From: a virus
Taxonomy: Duplodnaviria; Heunggongvirae; Uroviricota; Caudoviricetes
Length of the DNA stretch: 20,809 nucleotides
Strand: one strand, 5' to 3'
Virus record (IMG/VR): IMGVR_UViG_3300043436_001089
Within the stretch, counting starts at the first letter, position 1. Every line of letters starts with the position of its first letter. Under the pieces are notes generated by a model, which ran no database searches, was not told the origin of the DNA, and worked only from the letters and a program-made list of their open reading frames with translations. Made by a program: the position numbers and the translations under genes. Positions 5,010-14,585 of the stretch are shown here, piece by piece.

Positions 5010-5015
5010 ACGTAT

Positions 5016-5044
5016 ATTATACATTGCTCTAACAAAATAATCAA
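5016..5044 (-). promoter_or_regulatory. sigma70-type promoter for exonuclease/mini-DnaE, leaderless
   Basis: TTGATT (5044-5039), 17 nt, TATAAT (5021-5016), 6 nt, ATG 5009. Shares GTTGATTAT with the primase promoter. Confidence 0.72.
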
Positions 5045-5093
5045 CTTATATGGACAAAATGCACCAGATGCATTTTAACCTCCCAACCTTAGT

Positions 5094-5426
5094 TTACTGT
5101 GTAGAAACTATATTATAATGTACTACAACATGATTTGAATAATTTTCTAGACGAAAAATAGATCCTACGGGTAAGAGCAATACATCCTTAGGTTGAACAG
5201 TGAATATATCTTCGTTTAAATATACCATTGCATTACCGTCTAAGAAAAAACAAATCTTTTCTTCAGTTATTTTCTCTTTTCTTGTCTTTTGGTTAGGTGA
5301 TAACAAATGATTAGACAATACTAAGTTATCCAAACTATTATTTTGTGTTACATTAAGGGATTTAGTTTTTTTAACTTGTTTTCCACCTATGTCGTATACC
5401 TTCAAAGTATGCTCTTTTTTCATCAT
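5094..5426 (-). CDS. Cupin-fold protein (degenerate)
   Basis: EKICFFLDGNAMVYLNEDIFTVQPKDVLLLPVGSIFRLEN matches the cupin motif 1/2 pattern; metal-binding His residues appear absent. Confidence 0.7.
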   Translation of the reverse strand: MMKKEHTLKVYDIGGKQVKKTKSLNVTQNNSLDNLVLSNHLLSPNQKTRKEKITEEKICFFLDGNAMVYLNEDIFTVQPKDVLLLPVGSIFRLENYSNHVVVHYNIVSTQ

Positions 5427-6367
5427 TCTACCTTTAGATTTGTGTTTTTGACAATACTAGTCCACTTTGTTTTCTCAGAGTCCATAAACTTTTGTGCATT
5501 GTTGGCCTTAATATTAGTCGGTCCCAATCCTACTGCCCGCAACTTAATTTTTGTTTGTTCTTCTTCCAGTGCGTTCGTCAATGCGGCTTTGAGTTGGGTT
5601 GTTATATTAGGTTGGGTATCTGCTGATATTGATATTCCAATCCAAGCATATGCTTCTAAAAAAGAAAACCCTTGTTCAGATACAGTAGCTATATTAGGTA
5701 TTGTAGTGATACGACTGTTGCCGGTTACTGCAATAGGTCTTATTTTGTTAGCGTCAATAAACCCCGCCATAACTGGATTATATACGTCAAATAGCATAGT
5801 TACCCTGCCTCCAATTAAATCAGTCATTGCAGGAGCCATACCTTTGTATGATATATGAACCATGTTCAAATTCTTTTTACTTTTAAGTACTTCTCCCAAT
5901 AAGTGAAGATTAGTGCCTTGGCCAGGACTAGCCCAAGAAGTAGTGTTTGGATTATTAGCAATATACTCAGTTAATTCTTTTAAATTATTAACAGGAATTT
6001 TTGTGTTTACTACTAGTACTAGAGGAGAAGTACCTACTAACCCTATTGACGTAAAGGACGATGATGAAAATCCAGCATCTATGTTCAAGATCGGCGACAT
6101 ATTAAGTGTACCGTTGTTTACTAGTACCAGAGTAAGTCCATCGGAATCAGAGTTGACAATGTGGCGCATAGCTAAGGCACCACCTGCTCCTGGAATATTT
6201 TCTACTACAACTACTTTGTTTAAATTTCTCCCCAATTCAGGGGCAATAACCCTAGCAACAGAGTCCATGGTCGCGCCAGATGATACAGGTACAACCAACT
6301 TGATTGTATTCGCATAAATTGTAGTAGTACATAAAAATGTTAATACAGAAATCAAAAGTTTTTTCAT
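5423..6367 (-). CDS. Tripartite tricarboxylate transporter substrate-binding protein (Bug/TctC family)
   Basis: Signal peptide MKKLLISVLTFLCTTTIYA; IKLVVPVSSGATMDSVAR, VVVENIPGAGG, DGLTL, ASPGQGTNLHL, HISYKGMAPAMTDLIGGRV, IRPIAVTG, W.GI, E..KW..IV. Confidence 0.92.
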   Translation of the reverse strand: MKKLLISVLTFLCTTTIYANTIKLVVPVSSGATMDSVARVIAPELGRNLNKVVVVENIPGAGGALAMRHIVNSDSDGLTLVLVNNGTLNMSPILNIDAGFSSSSFTSIGLVGTSPLVLVVNTKIPVNNLKELTEYIANNPNTTSWASPGQGTNLHLLGEVLKSKKNLNMVHISYKGMAPAMTDLIGGRVTMLFDVYNPVMAGFIDANKIRPIAVTGNSRITTIPNIATVSEQGFSFLEAYAWIGISISADTQPNITTQLKAALTNALEEEQTKIKLRAVGLGPTNIKANNAQKFMDSEKTKWTSIVKNTNLKVE

Positions 6368-7602
6368 AGTGTTTTATTTGGTAAAAAGTCGTTAAGGTTT
6401 CCTATATGAAAACGTTTAAGGCACATATTAAATCCTGTTCTATTAGGATTTAAATATTTAGGAGATATATTTTTGTAAAATAATTTAAAATCACTGACTA
6501 TCATTTCTGTTATGCGACTCCTCCCATGTAACCTTCCAATCCAGCTATTGAATGATGGTAAGAATGTTTGCGCTTGATCGAACTTTTTAGATTGGAATAA
6601 ATTCAGGTCATGAGTAGTAGGATATATAAACGGAACAATGCTTCGTTGATAAACAGTTTTGGGAGAATAATCATCGGCATGATCTTTTACAGTTAATATA
6701 TTAGACAATATTTCGTCGGCCGATAGAGGATTTGTCCTTGTTGTTTTTGCCACTAAGTCTATTACTGCCTTATATATTAATTTGTTTTCTGGTTTTAGCA
6801 TTTCTCTTGCAACAACGTGCGCTTGCTTAACCATTATTTCTGGAAGTTCATGCGTCCAATAGAATAGCACTCGATCTACATTGTGGTAAACTGTTTTAAA
6901 AGGATACTTAGCTAAGTAAACAGCAGAGTCAGCTATCATAGCATACAATCCACCCAGTGGTGTCAACAGAAGCACAGGCTTATCGGTACCCCATACTGAA
7001 GCAATTCTTTTTCCTTGTTCTGCCATATCAACTAAGTGAGACAATGAGTCTAACCGTCCATACTGTGAACCAGTCATACCAATCAAATCGCCTTCGGATT
7101 CATAGATCCAAGAATCCGATTCTAGATTAACTATATTATTAAAAAAATCTAATACAGTAATTTTAGTACTAGGCGATCTAGTGACAACTTCGTGTAGAAT
7201 GGGGTATTGAGCATACTTTGTTTCTGACATGTAATTTTCTGCAGCCATATCTTTATCATTCCATTGCCAATTATTGAGGCCAGACTCTGGTATTAATGCA
7301 ATTACTTCGTCTACATGTATGTTATTGTTCAAAAAAGTCCTAATAACATTGTTACTATCTGCTCCACCACTAAGAAAAACAATTACATAATCATACGCAT
7401 TTCTGATCTGTTCTGCTCTAATCTTATAAAGTGCATCTAATGATAACTCCGGTTCTACTAACCAATTTACTTTCTGAAATATGTCATCAAAAAAATACCA
7501 CACTACTTCAGTACCAGTTTTTTGTGCCTCTAATATCGCAGCCACTTTATTAGTACCGTATGATACCCCATTAACTGCATAATACCCCAATTCTGTTTTC
7601 AT
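6364..7602 (-). CDS. PP-loop (adenine nucleotide alpha hydrolase-like) protein of unknown function
   Basis: RAEQIRNAYDYVIVFLSGGADSNNV (SGGxDS PP-loop) and WGTDKP. ATGA overlaps on both sides. Confidence 0.7.
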   Translation of the reverse strand: MKTELGYYAVNGVSYGTNKVAAILEAQKTGTEVVWYFFDDIFQKVNWLVEPELSLDALYKIRAEQIRNAYDYVIVFLSGGADSNNVIRTFLNNNIHVDEVIALIPESGLNNWQWNDKDMAAENYMSETKYAQYPILHEVVTRSPSTKITVLDFFNNIVNLESDSWIYESEGDLIGMTGSQYGRLDSLSHLVDMAEQGKRIASVWGTDKPVLLLTPLGGLYAMIADSAVYLAKYPFKTVYHNVDRVLFYWTHELPEIMVKQAHVVAREMLKPENKLIYKAVIDLVAKTTRTNPLSADEILSNILTVKDHADDYSPKTVYQRSIVPFIYPTTHDLNLFQSKKFDQAQTFLPSFNSWIGRLHGRSRITEMIVSDFKLFYKNISPKYLNPNRTGFNMCLKRFHIGNLNDFLPNKTL

Positions 7603-8549
7603 ATTTCTTTTAATGCCTCTTCTTTAAGTCTTACATAATATGCAATAGGATTGCTCAGAATTTCTTGATTTTGAGCACTTCGGTATTTCTTATAGTTATT
7701 CAATATGATTTGAATCTTCACCTCATCTAGGTCAATTATATTAGACAATGAATTTATTAACATGTTCACATCATCCTGCATCAAGTATATGAATGGAAGT
7801 TTGATACACCCATCAGTATACTCTGAGTAAGGTTTGCCTATAGTATAAGGTATTTTACCTAGTATTAATAATTCTTTATGTGGGTACAGTATTGTATTGA
7901 CCAAATCAGGTTGTCTGTCAATCGGGTCTAGTAGTTTTGCTAAACCATAATATTTTAACATTCTTGAGAATGATATATACCTTACTAACTTACTATTTTT
8001 ATCTAATGTCCTTACTCTAGACTCACCTAACATATTAGATAGTTCCATTCTCATGCCATGATGCCACATTCTCACGACTTCAATCCTTCTTTTCTCAGTA
8101 AGGGGATTTATAGTATTTAGGTCTAGTATATTTTTTGTAACATTAAACAGAACCACAGCAACCTTCTCCATATCAGATTCTTGCGTGATTACTAGAATCT
8201 TTGAGTTGGGGAAAAACTTTTTATATAATGGTATGTTTGTAAAATCATGTGACCAAATAATATGAGGTGTAGATACATCAGTGTATTCTGATTTTATCTT
8301 GTCTAAATAAAAATCGATTCTATCTTCTTCGCTGTTAAATGCTGATTGCTCATCCACTTCAGTACCAAATGAAAGGTAATCAGTTCCTGATATTTTACGA
8401 TTAATCAACGTGTGGGCGGTTCCACTCACTCCTACATTAATAGTGTCTGTGTCGTTTTTTAAAACTTTTTCTAGTAATGATGCTATAAAGTTTCCGGATG
8501 CGCCCGGATGAAAGACGATAAAAATATGGGCTAAGTCAAATATTTGCAT
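7599..8549 (-). CDS. P-loop sulfotransferase-like protein
   Basis: IFIVFHPGASGNFIASLL resembles a 5'-PSB loop, followed by WSHDF..FPNSKILVI. Likely start is Met16 (8549), just after the upstream stop and an ATAAATA box. Confidence 0.5.
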   Translation of the reverse strand: MQIFDLAHIFIVFHPGASGNFIASLLEKVLKNDTDTINVGVSGTAHTLINRKISGTDYLSFGTEVDEQSAFNSEEDRIDFYLDKIKSEYTDVSTPHIIWSHDFTNIPLYKKFFPNSKILVITQESDMEKVAVVLFNVTKNILDLNTINPLTEKRRIEVVRMWHHGMRMELSNMLGESRVRTLDKNSKLVRYISFSRMLKYYGLAKLLDPIDRQPDLVNTILYPHKELLILGKIPYTIGKPYSEYTDGCIKLPFIYLMQDDVNMLINSLSNIIDLDEVKIQIILNNYKKYRSAQNQEILSNPIAYYVRLKEEALKEI

Positions 8550-8552
8550 ACC

Positions 8553-8562
8553 GTATTTATTC
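8553..8562 (-). promoter_or_regulatory. Late-type box GAATAAATAC heading the accessory operon
   Basis: GAATAAATAC-GGT-ATG; one mismatch to GACTAAATAC. Confidence 0.45.
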
Positions 8563-8838
8563 ACATAACTTGTAGTGTGTGTAAATCTTCTCATTCATGC
8601 AAATACCATTATGCGTTGACCACCATGTATCTGTGTATCGTTTGGCCCCGTAATGCTTATATAACCAGTTTTCAGTAGTACTTTTACCCATTGGGAATTT
8701 GGTTATCTCATAGAATATACGATCTTCCCATGCACCATTTGAGGGAACTGTCTTTTTAAATTTTCTAAAATATATTGGTTCTGCGTCTTCTTGGTATATC
8801 GGAGAAAACGTTCCATTTATTCCTTGAGTAATTGCCAT
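8557..8838 (-). CDS. Small hypothetical protein, divergent member of the array family
   Basis: TENWLYKHYGA...WW...ICMNEKIYTHYKLCE. Confidence 0.7.
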   Translation of the reverse strand: MAITQGINGTFSPIYQEDAEPIYFRKFKKTVPSNGAWEDRIFYEITKFPMGKSTTENWLYKHYGAKRYTDTWWSTHNGICMNEKIYTHYKLCE

Positions 8839-9176
8839 ACATATCTCTTTTCTATTGATTCTTTAAACTTCTCAGCATCACTTTGCTTCTCAAATACTGC
8901 TCCAAATATTTTATAATTCTTGTACAAATAATGTGAGTATTCAGCAGTAATATTAGTGGTGTATGCAGAGTCATCAATCCATAATATAGAAGCATCAGCT
9001 TCAAAATAATTGTCTAACGTTACACCTAGTCCAACTTTATTACATTTAACCTCAGTGAATACAAATTTTAATATATCAAATGCCATGTTGTCATAATGGT
9101 TTGATGCCTGAAAGACGGGCCAGGTGACTGACCAAGTATTGTCACACAAATCGTTTAGTATAAAAGGACTGTTCAT
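8817..9176 (-). CDS. Small hypothetical protein, possible array-family member
   Basis: AVFEKQSDAEKF motif near the C-terminus; overlaps both neighbours. Confidence 0.7.
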   Translation of the reverse strand: MNSPFILNDLCDNTWSVTWPVFQASNHYDNMAFDILKFVFTEVKCNKVGLGVTLDNYFEADASILWIDDSAYTTNITAEYSHYLYKNYKIFGAVFEKQSDAEKFKESIEKRYVWQLLKE

Positions 9177-9445
9177 TGGTATTTCAGTAAAAATATAAGG
9201 TACTTCTTTTCGTCCATGACTTTGTACCCATCTGTTATGTTACCGTTGACCACGTTCATTTTGATTCCATAGTTTGCTTCAATGTAATCTTCAAAGTCAT
9301 ACGCATCAAAATCAACAGTGGCTGCATCCTGCATATATTCTCTACGCACAAGTTTTAATGCCGCCCAATAATCCCAACGTCTTTTGCGTTGTTCTATGTT
9401 AGGATCATCGTCATCGTAATCTTGAAATGGCGGTACTGTAGTCAT
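9173..9445 (-). CDS. Small array-family protein
   Basis: FEDYIEANYGIK...YKVMDEKKYLIFLLKYQ; start MTTVPP by ATGA overlap. Confidence 0.78.
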   Translation of the reverse strand: MTTVPPFQDYDDDDPNIEQRKRRWDYWAALKLVRREYMQDAATVDFDAYDFEDYIEANYGIKMNVVNGNITDGYKVMDEKKYLIFLLKYQ

Positions 9446-9660
9446 TTGTATAGTAGTTCGAACCAAGAAGCTAGTTCTTCTTTGTAGAAAGTGAACAGTG
9501 TATATCTATCATAGAGTACACCATACCGTTCAAGATCATATTCAGGTTTATGATATGCGAAATCAAAATCGGTGCCTTGAACATAGCCTTTAGCTCGTAA
9601 TTCTTTTACTATGCCCATCATAGCATCGGGCTTCATATTAGGTAATTTGATTTCAATCAT
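9442..9660 (-). CDS. Small array-family protein
   Basis: FTFYKEELASWFELLYK; ATGA overlaps. Confidence 0.78.
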   Translation of the reverse strand: MIEIKLPNMKPDAMMGIVKELRAKGYVQGTDFDFAYHKPEYDLERYGVLYDRYTLFTFYKEELASWFELLYK

Positions 9661-9881
9661 GAGGAAAACTTAATCGTAAAAAAAGTGGCAAGTTTCTCAT
9701 CTTCTAATGTCAACATCCATCTTTTGTTAACCATGCCAGGATCCCATTCAGCCTTGACTAACCATCCTTGTCCACCGATGCTATTGTGTAGATAATGCAT
9801 ACGTGGGCCTACATTCTTAGCTAGCCATTGTTCTTCTTCGCCGGTTAGTGTATTATTTCGTAATGGTATCTTTATCGTCAT
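9657..9881 (-). CDS. Small array-family protein
   Basis: EEQWLAKNVGP...LTLEDEKLATFFTIKFSS. Confidence 0.78.
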   Translation of the reverse strand: MTIKIPLRNNTLTGEEEQWLAKNVGPRMHYLHNSIGGQGWLVKAEWDPGMVNKRWMLTLEDEKLATFFTIKFSS

Positions 9882-10146
9882 GTGTTAGTAAATCAAATAG
9901 TGTTGCATATTGCGTTTCTGGTTCCATGTGAAAGCCTGTACCCCACACTACCCACACTTTACGTTTGTATGCTTTCTCCAACCAGATACGTTTACCTGCA
10001 ACTGTTTTGCGTGGTAAGATAGCAAAGTATTCATGCCATGGATAGCAGTCAGCACCGTCAGTTAATATGTAATAGTCCACTTTTACATTCCTGTATCGTA
10101 TCAATTCAATGTTCCATCCAATACTACGTCCCCAATTTATAGCCAT
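9853..10146 (-). CDS. Small Trp-rich hypothetical protein (different family)
   Basis: PWHEYFAILPRKTVAGKRIWLEKAYKR; start MAINWG lies inside the upstream KWL* codons. Confidence 0.7.
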   Translation of the reverse strand: MAINWGRSIGWNIELIRYRNVKVDYYILTDGADCYPWHEYFAILPRKTVAGKRIWLEKAYKRKVWVVWGTGFHMEPETQYATLFDLLTHDDKDTITK

Positions 10147-10397
10147 TTCAGTATGAACCATTCAGCGTCTTGTTTCTTTTCAAAGACAAATGTTCTACCT
10201 AACTTGGTATGTTTACCCGTGCAGTTTTCATCAATCCATAGTTCAATGTCAATTGATTCATATCTGTCTTTCAGTCGTTCTAATTCAACTTTAGTCCAAC
10301 CAGTCGCTACTAACATGTCTAACATAATTTCTCTATCAATTTCTTCTGTGATGGCTCTACTCATCTCTCCTGCAATGTCTTCTACTAAGTCTGACAT
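10137..10397 (-). CDS. Small array-family protein
   Basis: DIELWIDENCTG...FVFEKKQDAEWFILKWL. Confidence 0.82.
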   Translation of the reverse strand: MSDLVEDIAGEMSRAITEEIDREIMLDMLVATGWTKVELERLKDRYESIDIELWIDENCTGKHTKLGRTFVFEKKQDAEWFILKWL

Positions 10398-10672
10398 ATA
10401 TATTCTTTCATTGTGATTTCTTCATACTCACCTGCGAATGCGATTCTGAATACTTTAGCGGCTTCACTCCACTCAAACTGAATAACATCGTAGTCCAATG
10501 GTCTATCCATTTTGCTGTACACACTAGCCCACTCGACATGAAAGCGATTGAAAGATCCCTTCTCAGGATATGCTTCTGCCCACTGGTACATATCAGTAGT
10601 ACACTTTTTTACTTTGAATCTGTAAGTAAAGTATGGGCGATTATTACCTCCGCCACTATAAAAGTATTCCAT
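10385..10672 (-). CDS. Small array-family protein
   Basis: DMYQWAEAY...IQFEWSEAAKVFRIAF; start MEYFY via TGATG overlap. Confidence 0.75.
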   Translation of the reverse strand: MEYFYSGGGNNRPYFTYRFKVKKCTTDMYQWAEAYPEKGSFNRFHVEWASVYSKMDRPLDYDVIQFEWSEAAKVFRIAFAGEYEEITMKEYICQT

Positions 10673-10923
10673 CAGTTCCACCGTAATAAGAACAATGTCA
10701 GGTCTTCATCGTTGCACAAGAAAATTTCACCTTGTTCTGAAATATTATCTAGCCAACGAGTTCGTTCAATCGCATCTTGATATCCCGCGGGGCCTAATGT
10801 TTCAATACACCAAGCACGAATCTCATCACCGTCAACTTCTCCCTTACCCTTCCAGGATACAGTGTGAATGTTTCGTTCACTACCGTAGTAGTGTTCTGTT
10901 TTATGCGTGAATGGAGTAGTCAT
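10672..10923 (-). CDS. Small array-family protein
   Basis: DEIRAWCIETLGP...RW...IFLCNDEDLTLFLLRWN; start MTTPF via ATGA overlap. Confidence 0.82.
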   Translation of the reverse strand: MTTPFTHKTEHYYGSERNIHTVSWKGKGEVDGDEIRAWCIETLGPAGYQDAIERTRWLDNISEQGEIFLCNDEDLTLFLLRWN

Positions 10924-11342
10924 CTGTTTAAGATTGCCCACATGTCAAGTTTATTTTTCATTTCTTCCTTCTCCTGATGTGCATTGTAACGACTACGTTC
11001 TGCGGTTTCTCTCATGTATTTTTCAGTAAGAACTTCTTGTCGCAATTGTTCAATCAACTCACTGACCTTCATCGTTTTCATTTCTTCAATTTCGTCTAGT
11101 GCTTGCTTTAGTTGTTCATTGAGATATTCTATCTCATTTTCAAGATGACTGATGTATTGACCAGGAAGATAATCATTACATGTATCTTTATCTCTAAAGG
11201 TACAGTCTGTTTGATCCATGCCCGCACGTTCAAGGTCATCTAGAATAGCACCGGGATGACGATCCATGTATGTAGCAAGTCTGACACGAACAGGGTCGTT
11301 GTCAAACTTTATCGTGTAATCAATCAATTCATTGTCTGTCAT
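10920..11342 (-). CDS. Hypothetical protein with C-terminal coiled coil
   Basis: Heptad pattern ISHLENEIEYLNEQLKQALDEIEEMK...; lacks the array motif. Confidence 0.75.
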   Translation of the reverse strand: MTDNELIDYTIKFDNDPVRVRLATYMDRHPGAILDDLERAGMDQTDCTFRDKDTCNDYLPGQYISHLENEIEYLNEQLKQALDEIEEMKTMKVSELIEQLRQEVLTEKYMRETAERSRYNAHQEKEEMKNKLDMWAILNR

Positions 11343-11343
11343 G

Positions 11344-11523
11344 TCATAGCCATATTAAGTTAAACCACATTGCGTCTTTATCTTCCACTTCAAAGTAGAT
11401 ATCATCTTGTCCTAGTTGCCACATTCCCCATTCTGTTCTATCTACATAATTCTTACAGTTCTTTTCAATCCATGTACATCGTTCGTGCCAGGTAATTGGG
11501 CAACTAATTATAATTCTCGTCAT
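11344..11523 (-). CDS. 59-aa array-family protein missed by the ORF track
   Basis: Manual translation MTRIIISCPITWHERCTWIEKNCKNYVDRTEWGMWQLGQDDIYFEVEDKDAMWFNLIWL*. Exactly fills the gap; ATGA overlap with GAGG SD 5 nt upstream. Confidence 0.85.
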   Translation of the reverse strand: MTRIIISCPITWHERCTWIEKNCKNYVDRTEWGMWQLGQDDIYFEVEDKDAMWFNLIWL

Positions 11524-11729
11524 GAATGCCTCAACACAAACAACATATACAATTTTTCATCATGCCACTTGACATTATAAGCATAACCACCCTTCTTACA
11601 TTTACCCAGAGTAGCATTGTACTTTTTCAATTCACTGACAAGATCCTTATCTTCTATTGTGTTTACAAAGTTACTAAAGTAAGTGTGAGGTCTCAGTGGT
11701 CTTAGATTTTCATATTGTCTGCGAATCAT
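11520..11729 (-). CDS. Small array-family protein
   Basis: YNVKWHDEKLYMLFVLRHS; start MIRRQY by ATGA overlap with GAGG SD. Confidence 0.78.
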   Translation of the reverse strand: MIRRQYENLRPLRPHTYFSNFVNTIEDKDLVSELKKYNATLGKCKKGGYAYNVKWHDEKLYMLFVLRHS

Positions 11730-11747
11730 GACCACCTCAACACAAAC
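11520..11747. repeat. 22-bp imperfect direct repeat (19/22) at the 3' ends of two adjacent array genes
   Basis: tcatgaATGcctcaacacaaac (11520-11541) vs tcatgaCCAcctcaacacaaac (11726-11747). Confidence 0.85.
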
Positions 11748-12211
11748 CATTCATAATCTTTACTATCACGGAAGTGAATCTTCCCTTGATACTTGTGACT
11801 CCACCGACTCCACGCATCTGGCCGTTGAGGATGCGGACCAAACTGTTGACTACACCATGCAAGCACTTCGCCTTGGTGTGCCCAGGCAAAATCTGCCACA
11901 TACCATTCGGCACGACTAAATTGATACTTCTTCACTTTTTTCTTCTGCTTGATTCTATTAGTAGCTAAATTACCAAAACTTATTTTCAGTTCTTGTATGT
12001 ACTCTTGCTCTGGCAAGACTATCTCTTGACAAAGATTATTTTGGAACCAAGTATTCAGATAAGCATTTAGATAACTCTTGCCAGTCTGCCGGCCCGCACT
12101 ATACAAAGTCATTTGACCCTGTTTGAATCCACCCTGACTTAGTTTATCCCAAAGGGCTTGTTGGTACGGCAAAGGTTCTATACCTTCAGTTACGTTTTTG
12201 ATAATGTTCAT
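11726..12211 (-). CDS. Array-family protein with an N-terminal Walker-A-like fragment
   Basis: LPYQQALWDKLSQGGFKQGQMTLYSAGRQTGKS, then EVLAWCSQQFGP...IHFRDSKDYEWFVLRWS. Confidence 0.8.
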   Translation of the reverse strand: MNIIKNVTEGIEPLPYQQALWDKLSQGGFKQGQMTLYSAGRQTGKSYLNAYLNTWFQNNLCQEIVLPEQEYIQELKISFGNLATNRIKQKKKVKKYQFSRAEWYVADFAWAHQGEVLAWCSQQFGPHPQRPDAWSRWSHKYQGKIHFRDSKDYEWFVLRWS

Positions 12212-12525
12212 TTTACCAACTTTGTTATTATGTTGAAATAGTCAATCGCTTCACATACTTTCTTCCAAGCATTGATTTCTGCTGGTAGTGGTTGCAGTGA
12301 AATATGATTGGCCGGATCGTGTTCGGGGCAAGGTGTCCAAATACTAACTCGAATTGTATGCGAATGTGGGGCCTTAGACTCTCGCCATTCTGCATAATAG
12401 TTGTCCCAGTAATACAATCCATAGCCTTCTTCGTCATCACCTAATGATGGCAATTTATAGGCCAGGTAATGCCCACTAACTTTAGGGCAAATATCTTCTT
12501 CGTGTTTCCAAATACTTGTTATCAT
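12208..12525 (-). CDS. Small hypothetical protein (DUF551-like N-terminus)
   Basis: WKHEEDICPKVSGHYLAY...VSIWTPCPE resembles the DUF551 pattern; overlaps both neighbours. Confidence 0.65.
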   Translation of the reverse strand: MITSIWKHEEDICPKVSGHYLAYKLPSLGDDEEGYGLYYWDNYYAEWRESKAPHSHTIRVSIWTPCPEHDPANHISLQPLPAEINAWKKVCEAIDYFNIITKLVK

Positions 12526-12779
12526 CAGAATCTCAACTTAAACCATACACAGTCTCGCTCATATCTGAATTTTACACTAATAGTCAATACTTGTCTAGTC
12601 CAACGGCAATGTCTTTGTGGATTATCTATATTTTTGTACAGCCATAGTACTACTTCTTTATGTACTAAATCTAGTTCAGTCTGATTATGGGTAACTATAT
12701 CATGAGTATGCCAAAAAGGATGGTCATCATCCCATCCCCTAGTCCAATCATAGTATTCTTTGTGCAATTTTATTGCCAC
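12525..12779 (-). CDS. Small array-family protein
   Basis: EVVLWLYKNID...RW...ISVKFRYERDCVWFKLRF; GTG start inside the upstream R-W codons. Confidence 0.8.
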   Translation of the reverse strand: MAIKLHKEYYDWTRGWDDDHPFWHTHDIVTHNQTELDLVHKEVVLWLYKNIDNPQRHCRWTRQVLTISVKFRYERDCVWFKLRF

Positions 12780-13198
12780 CTTAGTAAAAACATCATGTAA
12801 TCTTTTTCATTTTTGAAAGCAACAAATATATAATCACCTCCGCCTAAATCGTTGAATTCCCACTCCATACTAGTAGAAGGATACCTTATGACGCGGTGCA
12901 TGTCCATACGACTAGTAAATGTTGCATGTTGATCCAACCAGTCATATATATCATCATTGCCGTATCTTATTCCACCCGGACCGTAATCATACAACAACTC
13001 ATAGGCATAATGACTTCTATCTTCAAAACAATAAACGTACTTATAACCGCCATAGAAATCTTTTACTCTAGTTGCTCGCCATAAAATGTTAGGGTCGTTG
13101 GTGCGCCGATAATATTCCCATGACTCGTGTCCACTCTTTTCGAGCTTACGTTCGGCTCGCTTCTTACGAACCCATGCTTTGATTCTGTTTATCCGCAT
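12770..13198 (-). CDS. Array-family protein
   Basis: DIYDWLDQH...IFVAFKNEKDYMMFLLRWQ. Confidence 0.82.
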   Translation of the reverse strand: MRINRIKAWVRKKRAERKLEKSGHESWEYYRRTNDPNILWRATRVKDFYGGYKYVYCFEDRSHYAYELLYDYGPGGIRYGNDDIYDWLDQHATFTSRMDMHRVIRYPSTSMEWEFNDLGGGDYIFVAFKNEKDYMMFLLRWQ

Positions 13199-13227
13199 GT
13201 TAATTCAAACATCATTGCATCTTTTTC
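12788..13227. repeat. 21-bp imperfect direct repeat (18/21) at the 3' ends of two adjacent array genes
   Basis: aaacatcatGTAatctttttc (12788-12808) vs aaacatcatTGCatctttttc (13207-13227). Confidence 0.8.
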
Positions 13228-13425
13228 GTCTAAGAACCAAAACTCAATATGAGTCTTAGTGAATCTACACGTATACTTCTCTCCGGGTAATCCGAACAGT
13301 TCAATTGCAGTAGCACATGTTTCGTTCCACATGTTTATCCCGGCAGTAGTCCTTACAGTCTCATTAAAGGGTATCTTAACCCTATAGTCATGTGTGCCAT
13401 CAATGCCGTTTATGAGTAGTGCCAT
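13189..13425 (-). CDS. Small array-family protein
   Basis: WNETCATAIELFGLPG...IEFWFLDEKDAMMFELTCG. Confidence 0.82.
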   Translation of the reverse strand: MALLINGIDGTHDYRVKIPFNETVRTTAGINMWNETCATAIELFGLPGEKYTCRFTKTHIEFWFLDEKDAMMFELTCG

Positions 13426-14585
13426 AGTTCAGTATATAATTCAGGTATGTAATCTTTTACGTTCTTGTTTCTGTATGCATCAGACTTCTCAATAAACAGT
13501 TTACCTTTATTGATAGTTTCAATATCTAACATAGGTTCCTTGAGCATAGCAATCGCATGGTCTATCGTTGGGTGAAACTCAGTAGATATAGTATCTTTCA
13601 GTTTAGATAATTTTTCTACCCCCTGTTGTCTATACTCAACTGATGTTATTCTCATACTAGTATACATCGGATATGTAATTTTATTCAAGGCAACACCGTA
13701 ATATTTGGGTAAGTTGTAGCGTGTTAACAACTGATCCCAAAACGTAAACATCTCGTCTAAGTGTATGCAATTGAACACACTAGGGGTTAGACTTAAACCT
13801 ATAGATATTTTATCTTTACTTGTCAACTCTAGAAACCTGTTGAGATTGTATTCAATCTTACTCCATTTGATCGGGTATCTGATATAATCATTTTTCTCCC
13901 CGTATGCATCCATTGATACATTCAATTCTATATTTCTAAAGTTACCCCATACTTCAAGTAACGAATCATCTATACCCGTCAAATTAGTTACGTAACCCAA
14001 GTCAATGTTAGTGCTAGAGCCATTGTCAATCAACTTATGTAAGTATGACAGATGGCTGTCATTGATGGTAGGCTCGCCACCTAAGAAGGTGATCTTTTTG
14101 ATATTAGTGAAGTCATTCACTAGTTCATCAACTAATTCAGAGTGTTCTAGTATAGAATCGCTTGTGCTGATAACAGGAACATCCCAAATAGTTTTCCATT
14201 CGTCTTGCCATAGACTACTAGAGCCGGGATTACATGTCATGCATTTACTGTTGCACTTGTTACCCACAGACAGGTGAACCGTATATACATCAGTAGGTTT
14301 TAGTACTGTATTGCATCTTTGTTCTGTGTTGTATGCGTTAAACATAGTTCTTAGCGAACTACCGGACACCTCCTCTGCTGTTTTACAACTGTTGCATTCA
14401 GATGGCCATATACCTGCTTTTAATTGACTACGCACCCGAATAATGTTTGCATGATTCACTCGTTCTGATAGTGATCCACTTTTGTCTTTATTAGGTAGGT
14501 AGTTAGCAGAAATAGCACAACAAGGAGTCAGTCGTCCGTTAGAGATTACATTCATGCCGGCATGCGCTAGTGAGCAATACAGCAT
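13410..14585 (-). CDS. Radical SAM enzyme with N-terminal twitch/SPASM-type Fe-S domain
   Basis: YCSLAH..NVISNGRLTPCC...CNSC (twitch-like), CNSKCMTC (CxxxCxxC), FLGGEP, YVTNLT, VSMDA..YIRYP..W. Confidence 0.9.
   Translation of the reverse strand: MLYCSLAHAGMNVISNGRLTPCCAISANYLPNKDKSGSLSERVNHANIIRVRSQLKAGIWPSECNSCKTAEEVSGSSLRTMFNAYNTEQRCNTVLKPTDVYTVHLSVGNKCNSKCMTCNPGSSSLWQDEWKTIWDVPVISTSDSILEHSELVDELVNDFTNIKKITFLGGEPTINDSHLSYLHKLIDNGSSTNIDLGYVTNLTGIDDSLLEVWGNFRNIELNVSMDAYGEKNDYIRYPIKWSKIEYNLNRFLELTSKDKISIGLSLTPSVFNCIHLDEMFTFWDQLLTRYNLPKYYGVALNKITYPMYTSMRITSVEYRQQGVEKLSKLKDTISTEFHPTIDHAIAMLKEPMLDIETINKGKLFIEKSDAYRNKNVKDYIPELYTELWHYS

Follow-up and report, generated by a model that had tools for sequence, protein, structure and literature searches.

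The question raised by the phage contig IMGVR_UViG_3300043436_001089, a stretch of 20,809 nucleotides (nt) referred to here in its entirety as the window, is what is encoded by the long run of very small genes on its minus strand at 8557–13425, and why so many of their products end alike. The source of this 20.8-kb window is an uncultured jumbo phage of the T4 superfamily ('group 2.2'), of whose genome it is a fragment. An earlier inspection of the sequence (the original prediction) had described a packed block of 16 small open reading frames (ORFs); the packing was confirmed, and the ORFs number 17 (g01 to g17; 59–161 amino acids, aa). The best explanation overall, and one that we consider somewhat probable, is that they constitute a translationally coupled 17-gene block in which an ancient family of small domains, with a ribosome-binding site built into its genes, provides binders for host takeover or counter-defence.

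The spacer is ≤4 nt at every junction of the block. Five starts given by the longest ORFs were corrected, the probable positions being 11729 (g06), 10923 (g09), 10672 (g10), 10146 (g12) and 9445 (g15), each of which overlaps the upstream stop, by ATGA in g06, g09 and g15 and by TGATG in g10. After this correction ATGA/TGATG overlaps are present at 10 of the 17 junctions. The orthologue alignment of g12 begins at a later Met, in line with the start at 10146, and in relative G001 an in-frame stop lies somewhere inside the long version of g15. The start codon of g03 is uncertain; it may be a GTG that lies inside g02's AGG-TGG, or else the TTG found 8 nt later. A scan for promoters and terminators showed no enrichment inside the array.

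Membership of a common protein family was assessed by three kinds of profile comparison. A 24-residue hidden Markov model (HMM) of the strand-helix motif, anchored on the motif of the original prediction, was used in a leave-one-out test against 5,100 shuffled decoys; 11 of the 12 main motif bearers fell within the top ~1% (ranks 0–55), and g10 went undetected. An external HMM, built only from proteins outside the window, gave nine window genes 14–85 bits, with marginal results for g15, g17 and g14 and no score for g10, g16, g12, g08 and g04. Profile-profile comparison (hhalign) set the orthologue alignments of g10, g12, g14 and g16 against the family. Judged by these sequence criteria, the block holds nine firm members, two probable ones (g14 and g15), two doubtful ones (g10 and g17) and four non-members (g04, g08, g12 and g16). 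The earlier figure of about 13 motif-sharing paralogues stands in part, since of its 12 main motifs nine are firm, two probable and one doubtful. One of its 'weaker' motifs, AVFEKQSDAEKF of g16, could not be upheld as a family copy (leave-one-out rank 275, external HMM −0.4 bits, hhalign 2.6%). The motif HMM found no further copy elsewhere in the window in any frame. When built from window proteins only, it also picked out, in a 374-kb relative with a g05 only ~55% identical, an array holding at least 12 C-terminal copies; together with the leave-one-out result this establishes that the members detect one another, as had been anticipated.

The domain, which in every case lies at the very C-terminus and stops one or two residues short of the stop codon, is about 50–65 residues long and has the consensus ...E-[IV]-x-x-W-C-x-E-x-F-G-P...(P-D-A-W-S)-R-W...h-x-F-[RK]-D-E-K-D-[YA]-x-x-F-x-L-R-W-[SG], with a mean column identity of 23% in an 11-member C-terminal alignment. 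The upstream helix that the original prediction had noticed is part of it, as W-C-x-E-x-F-G. Its view that the genes are paralogues sharing a single small alpha/beta domain, their N-termini and loops being unrelated, is likewise borne out, by the HMM tests and by the AlphaFold2 models described below.

The distribution of the family was examined with a profile built from 11 members in the window, which recovered 409 proteins at E ≤ 1e-3 from 1.84 billion cluster representatives (50% identity). Among the 150 matches listed, all but one are 52–156 aa long and match at or near the C-terminus, the exception being a protein of 695 aa with seven scattered partial stretches. In 79 IMG/VR loci (1.2 Mb) there are 681 ORF matches, which without exception share the strand of the anchor and form tandem arrays with as many as 20 copies; in 637 of the 681 the match ends ≤3 residues from the stop. 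A complete 364-kb genome with terminal repeats carries 30 copies in two arrays, another complete uncultured genome 4 copies, and incomplete uncultured records 16, 12 and 7. Among cultured phages, at E ≤ 0.1, there are 46 matches in Sinorhizobium phage Phosso, 7 in Agrobacterium phage Atu_ph07 and 3 in Pseudomonas phage PA5oct; in the latter (EST35_0247, 0274 and 0275, annotated as hypothetical) the motif is visible by eye. The same HMM threshold gave 0 matches in Asteriusvirus phage JNE01. T4, P-SSM2, XacN1 and ME3 had no match and RaK2 a single one with four stop codons interrupting it. GenBank phages gave nothing when searched with the region by BLASTN or with g05 by TBLASTN; as the HMM finds copies in Phosso, Atu_ph07 and PA5oct, BLAST is evidently too insensitive for this family. 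The variability suggested for related phages was found, in that counts differ and gene order is shuffled in the farther relatives. In Phosso, one family cluster (L095, 1–15000) occurs where the record begins, its copies interspersed with tRNA genes and a fragment of a histidyl-tRNA synthetase; the small genes neighbouring it are all annotated as hypothetical.

No named family fits, in agreement with the original prediction. Searches of Pfam, PHROGs v4 and NCBIfam 20 with the window members, 91 family members and the PA5oct copies revealed nothing recurrent or near a curated cut-off, and a sequence-profile search of the PDB gave noise only (E 0.81). The source names retrieved for members are all 'hypothetical protein', and a literature search found no description of this family. 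It is a large, previously undescribed protein family; tandem paralogue arrays as such are already recognized in jumbo phages.

The age of the paralogues was judged from orthologues in related phages. Relative to a ~95.5%-identical phage the ratio of nonsynonymous to synonymous differences (pN/pS) is 0.17 overall and 0.06–0.28 in the diverged genes, non-family residents included, and the genes are therefore real. All 17 have full-length orthologues in 9–44 other loci, at 30–99% identity. Gene order is collinear in the near relative L014, which is without g06, and rearranged in the farther L018. Identity to L014 is itself a mosaic (g05 51%, g04 89%, g08 99%); relative to the IMG/VR record L001, g01–g07, g11, g16 and g17 are identical or nearly so, and g08–g10 and g12–g15 show synonymous divergence (pS) of 0.09–0.49. 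This mosaic pattern points to probable recombination and allelic replacement within the array. Because the orthologue groups are separate, the paralogues must be old and each of them maintained, with change coming through gain, loss, shuffling and allelic replacement and not through recent duplication. The same age accounts for the finding that no DNA repeat ≥14 nt links any two copies; g05 and g06 share an identical 12-nt TTTGTGTTGAGG (F-V-L-R) at their 3' ends (11726–11745 and 11523–11540). A fast-evolving, hypervariable repertoire is ruled out by the conserved orthologues of each paralogue and the low pN/pS, which indicate purifying selection. Since 9–11 of the 17 genes are adjacent co-oriented paralogues, copy number varies and occurrence is restricted by lineage, the array is classed as a lineage-specific multigene family of ancient paralogues.

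The common ending of these proteins has a counterpart in the DNA. Codons were counted in the non-redundant family genes of the 79 loci. The Arg codon is AGG in 261 of 378 terminal L-R-W tails (69%) versus 22 of 217 internal R-W pairs of the same domain (10%); the Leu preceding the terminal R-W is TTG in 60%, and the stop is TGA in 287 of the 378. The share of AGG follows the start of the next gene, being 77–84% for coupled starts (ATGA or TAATG/TGATG) and 28% for uncoupled ones. In 294 of 486 tails the stop is overlapped, as ATGA, by the ATG of the next gene. A Shine-Dalgarno-like core at −16 to −3 is present at 61% of family junctions; among coupled junctions of these loci that do not involve the family the figure is 26%. 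The typical tail, ...TTG-AGG-TGG-nnA-TGA, reads L-R-W-x-stop and places GAGGTG ~5 nt before the next ATG. These counts suggest that the L-R-W tail doubles as a Shine-Dalgarno-like site for the next overlapping cistron, which would explain why the domain ends at the stop, since the tail supplies the ribosome-binding site of the gene that follows. As each copy brings such a site for its successor, duplication, shuffling and loss may plausibly spare translation of the operon. The constant docking end proposed in the original prediction is not favoured, because the conserved W/F/L residues follow helix periodicity like core residues and the L-R-W codons are under nucleotide-level selection as a ribosome-binding site.

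The fold was modelled with AlphaFold2 for two members. The model of g05 (59-sequence alignment), which covers the C-terminal domain and not the N-terminal 92 residues, shows at residues ~95–161 a strand-helix-strand-strand-helix arrangement with a predicted local distance difference test score (pLDDT) of ~90. The model of g09 (91-sequence family alignment; mean pLDDT 84.6, predicted template modelling score 0.72) has the same core plus one extra N-terminal strand, giving strand-strand-helix-strand-strand-helix. The identical order of elements in the two models supports the common fold that had been expected. The best solved structure for g09 is eIF1 (Z 5.7, 66 residues, root-mean-square deviation 2.6, VIA-align), with YciH, aIF1 and eIF2D in the same list; next in order come mL49/Img2, the GyrA tower, KH, DCoH and secretin N-domains. 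For g05 the best score is Z 4.8. Foldseek against the PDB with the g09 model gave mL49 at a probability of 0.77–0.84, all E-values being ≥0.065. An ESM Atlas shape search returned template modelling (TM) scores, normalized by query, of 0.55–0.57 for the clusters of Img2 and archaeal SUI1; a bacterial SUI1 cluster followed at 0.47. Further BFVD and ESM Atlas matches are uncharacterized proteins of uncultured Caudovirales. Neither SUI1/eIF1 (PF01253) nor Img2 (PF05046) was matched in Pfam by the 17 window proteins (E ≤ 0.1) or the 91 members (E ≤ 0.01). The likeness to RRM/ferredoxin-like domains raised in the original prediction holds for the order of the first five elements and is otherwise no better than generic, the RRM chain scoring Z 3.6; RRM had no Pfam match in the window proteins or the 91 members. 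KH chains score Z 3.7–4.5, and the family consensus has no GXXG nor the 91 members a KH Pfam match. The predicted fold is thus a small two-layer alpha/beta sandwich; among named folds SUI1/Img2 resembles it most, though only weakly. A homodimer prediction for g09 scored 0.19 against a mark of 0.42 and was counted neither for nor against.

With regard to function, the conserved positions are mostly Trp, Phe and Leu, spaced, to judge from helix periodicity, as core-facing residues of helices and strands, and among them no catalytic-looking constellation or metal-binding motif was seen. The paralogues range in isoelectric point (pI) from 4.6 to 9.4 and contain 5.6% Trp versus 1.5% in neighbouring proteins. 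Charge and N-terminal extensions vary from one paralogue to the next, as presumably do surfaces, and on this ground each most likely binds a different macromolecule. The lack of a catalytic or metal-binding signature and of a fused enzyme domain, the wide pI range and the high Trp content favour a repertoire of non-enzymatic binding modules, acting most likely in host takeover or counter-defence.

The proposed mechanism would then be as follows. The 17 small genes would be expressed as one polycistronic, translationally coupled block, 9–11 of them being ancient paralogues of the undescribed 50–65-residue alpha/beta domain, in which the conserved Trp, Phe and Leu would form the hydrophobic core of a non-enzymatic scaffold. 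The ribosome-binding site borne by the tail would allow copies to be duplicated, shuffled or lost without breaking translation of the operon. Each paralogue would bind a different host (or phage) macromolecule, and the phage would produce the set alongside the replication genes, as a toolkit for taking over the host or countering its defences.

Several points weigh against this proposal. The external HMM is not fully independent, its sequences having been recruited with the window's own profile. The codon counts are inflated by copies related by descent, a bias that the internal R-W control shares. In the window itself the AGG-TGG design occurs only at g05-g06 (11726–11750), g06-g07 (11520–11534) and g02-g03 (12770–12790), and weakly at g03-g04. 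Among longer proteins of 250–2000 aa none carries the domain fused to a known one, which is weak evidence. Expression timing is deduced from position only, and the clearest early genes in the PA5oct paper are those of the terminal repeat, which lies elsewhere.

Other explanations were weighed against the same data. The C-terminal motif might be mainly a nucleotide-level signal, a reused ribosome-binding site, and not protein homology; the strong AGG/TTG bias in the tail, which varies with whether the start downstream is coupled, would be expected of this. The conserved stretch reaches, however, ~50 residues further upstream and takes in both the W-C-x-E-x-F-G helix and the internal R-W; AlphaFold2 folds the domain at a pLDDT of ~90; and L-R-W persists with Arg codons other than AGG and at tails not followed by a coupled start, so that this reading is extremely unlikely; in its strict form, a nucleotide signal and nothing else, it is ruled out by the ~50-residue conservation and the confident folding. 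Alternatively, the members may be RNA- or ribosome-binding modules with a fold related to SUI1/eIF1/YciH and Img2 (mL49), modulating translation or the fate of RNA in the infected cell. When the g09 model was used in three structure searches, SUI1/eIF1 and Img2 came first among named folds, and the order of secondary structure elements is that of SUI1, up to the last helix, minus the last strand. Yet the scores lie below the levels that the tools regard as meaningful (Z < 8, Foldseek E ≥ 0.065), SUI1/Img2 matches 0 of the 91 members in Pfam and shares no sequence similarity with them, and the members are multi-copy phage proteins whose charge runs from strongly acidic to basic, unlike that of a uniform RNA binder. 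Small two-layer alpha/beta sandwiches moreover recur by convergence. We regard such a role as unlikely. That the phage maintains a whole repertoire of SUI1/eIF1-like modules which bind the ribosome or mRNA and reprogram translation initiation, each gene also bearing in its final codons the Shine-Dalgarno site of its neighbour and so forming a self-propagating unit active at both the protein and the mRNA level of translation, has very little probability.

The position of the array raises the possibility that the paralogues assist the phage's replisome or recombination machinery as accessory factors, binding DNA or the replisome, and that they lie inside the replication module because they serve it. 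In 34–45 of the 79 loci the array stands, co-oriented, between the UvsW-like helicase and the exonuclease/mini-PolIII/primase/DnaB blocks, and the PA5oct copies are situated among nucleotide-metabolism genes. Replisome parts are, however, normally single-copy and uniform, whereas here the copy number runs from 3 to about 46; arrays are also found elsewhere (a second one in genome G003 and many scattered clusters in Phosso, one of them with tRNA genes), and the same plastic spot is occupied as well by a radical-SAM gene and a TctC island. This explanation is improbable. A further possibility is that the proteins are subunits of one hetero-oligomeric or structural assembly, be it of the virion, a scaffold or an intracellular structure. 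There are many copies of one fold, and adjacent, translationally coupled genes often encode interacting subunits. Against this, EST35_0247, 0274 and 0275 of PA5oct are not among the virion genes flagged by electrospray ionization tandem mass spectrometry (ESI-MS/MS), their neighbours bearing such a note, and related phages differ widely in copy number and gene order, which is not what a fixed assembly would show; we consider it very unlikely. The repertoire of binding modules for host takeover or counter-defence is the favoured reading.

Arrays of paralogues are known from other large viruses. More than 30 similar genes have been described in phage G and 121Q (Hua et al. 2017, PMC5646251), and phage G carries ~35 copies of a zinc ribbon (Iyer et al. 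2021, PMC7824862). The likeness to the present case lies in the many co-oriented tandem copies of one small uncharacterized protein and in a copy number that differs between relatives, attributed there to tandem duplication. The family described here differs in being Trp-rich and alpha/beta, with no zinc ribbon, and in copies that are old and very divergent instead of 'very similar'; it spans many uncultured phages as well as Phosso, Atu_ph07 and PA5oct, with no convincing copy in RaK2 or JNE01. The hyperplastic regions of the T4 superfamily consist of small, overlapping, co-transcribed accessory ORFs of the early/middle class wedged between core modules and vary by gain, loss and replacement. 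The array likewise consists of small overlapping accessory genes between core modules; the T4-type regions contain mostly unrelated ORFs, whereas here most are paralogues of a single domain of which T4 has no copy. The MGF360/505 genes of African swine fever virus and the Bcl-2-like families of poxviruses are also arrays of divergent paralogues with one small fold and variable number, thought to act on the host. This is an analogy only, with no homology and other hosts, and the built-in ribosome-binding site and operon coupling of the present family are specific to bacteria.

The individual genes, all on the minus strand, are as follows. G01 (13189..13425, 78 aa) is a firm member with the tail ...FWFLDEKDAMMFELTCG, an external HMM score of 23.9 bits and leave-one-out rank 0/5101. 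G02 (12770..13198, 142 aa) is firm (34.9 bits), carries an additional N-terminal extension of ~80 aa and has full-length orthologues in 32 loci, and g03 (12525..12779, 84 aa) is firm at 46.3 bits. G04 (12208..12525, 105 aa) resides in the array without belonging to the family; it has no external HMM score and full-length orthologues in 24 loci.

The most widespread member is g05 (11726..12211, 161 aa; 85 bits), in which the family domain occupies residues ~95–161. It has 255 homologues at E ≤ 0.01, of which the 120 listed are nearly all approximately full-length at about 50–99% identity, on contigs of up to 374 kb. Its N-terminal 72 aa (11996–12211) include a conserved PYQ...GRQTGKS segment that is kept in >250 homologues. 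This N-terminus resembles a Q-motif and Walker A fragment without the remainder of the ATPase; it has a weak match to phrog_2 (terminase) and, in a single comparison, shows 27% identity over 55 aa (E 0.01) to residues 59–108 of the terminase large subunit encoded by a related complete phage. The junction between g05 and g06 reads ttgAGGTGGtcATGA.

Following the ATG that overlaps the g05 stop, g06 (ORF 11520..11750) specifies 69 aa and is firm (13.9 bits, leave-one-out rank 2). G07 (11344..11523, 59 aa; 27.9 bits) is a firm member and nearly a bare domain. G08 (10920..11342, 140 aa) is an acidic, coiled-coil-like resident that is not a member; it has no external HMM score, only weak coiled-coil matches in Pfam, a pN/pS of 0.19 and full-length orthologues in 24 loci. 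The firm member g09 (ORF 10672..10941, 83 aa from its corrected start) scores 56 bits and has a pN/pS of 0.10. G10 (ORF 10385..10681, 95 aa; pN/pS 0.09) is doubtful: it was missed by both HMMs, and hhalign gave 12% probability against the family, yet in register across 49 columns. G11 (10137..10397, 86 aa) is firm at 28.7 bits, with full-length orthologues in 44 loci.

In the remainder of the block, g12 (ORF 9853..10161, 97 aa from its probable start) is a non-member resident for which hhalign found no relation to the family (pN/pS 0.28), and g13 (9657..9881, 74 aa) is a firm member (19.6 bits, pN/pS 0.17). G14 (9442..9660, 72 aa) is a probable member that has the strand-helix half only; its leave-one-out rank is 0, its external HMM score 5.8 bits, and its hhalign probability against the family 81% over 23 columns. 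G15 (ORF 9173..9466, 90 aa from the corrected start) is also probable (leave-one-out rank 55/5101, 8.5 bits, pN/pS 0.14). Membership of g16 (8817..9176, 119 aa) is unsupported by the values given above. G17 (8557..8838, 93 aa) is doubtful, scoring 7.2 bits over the W-helix part only (profile positions 23–48) and leave-one-out rank 2566.

Outside the array the window codes for a DnaB-like helicase, a primase, a DEDDh exonuclease and the back half of a split mini-PolIII, together with a TctC-family receptor, a radical-SAM enzyme and a UvsW-like helicase. The split mini-PolIII has been given as a feature of group 2.2 jumbo phages (Iyer et al. 2021, PMC7824862). The closest relatives of the window's helicase (49–55% identity) are in Sinorhizobium phage Phosso, Agrobacterium phage Atu_ph07, the Asteriusvirus phages and PA5oct. 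A 19.6-kb IMG/VR record, to which CheckV assigns a completeness of 6%, is 97% identical to the array region and 95.5% identical over 6.8 kb around the array. The main address of the array, in 34–45 of the 79 loci, is between a block of helicase, phrog_11279, a 198-aa protein and phrog_11058 and one of exonuclease, mini-PolIII and primase; it is a fixed hyperplastic spot inside the replication gene cluster. The radical-SAM gene (13410–14585) overlaps the first array gene by 16 nt. Its homologues adjoin the array in only 11 of the 79 related loci, and this gene is thus itself accessory. On the other side, the ~95%-identical relatives L004 and L005 have nothing equivalent to the block at 5011–8164 (the TctC-family receptor and proteins of 412 and 331 aa) in this place, and in L004 the corresponding gap is occupied by ~2.7 kb of unmatched DNA. 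The 5011–8164 block is a replaceable island adjoining the array.

Tandem paralogue families are one route by which jumbo phage genomes grow, and such phages hold hundreds of genes annotated without a function; the family profile lets annotators name several hundred of these 'hypothetical proteins'. Since the family is present in three culturable phages with tractable hosts (Phosso, Atu_ph07 and PA5oct), its function is directly testable. The L-R-W tail, as the end of a helix and putatively a ribosome-binding site as well, presents a clean and quantifiable overlap of protein and translation signals, and this dual role would offer a mechanistic reason why such cassettes may multiply and be shuffled in an operon without expression being lost.

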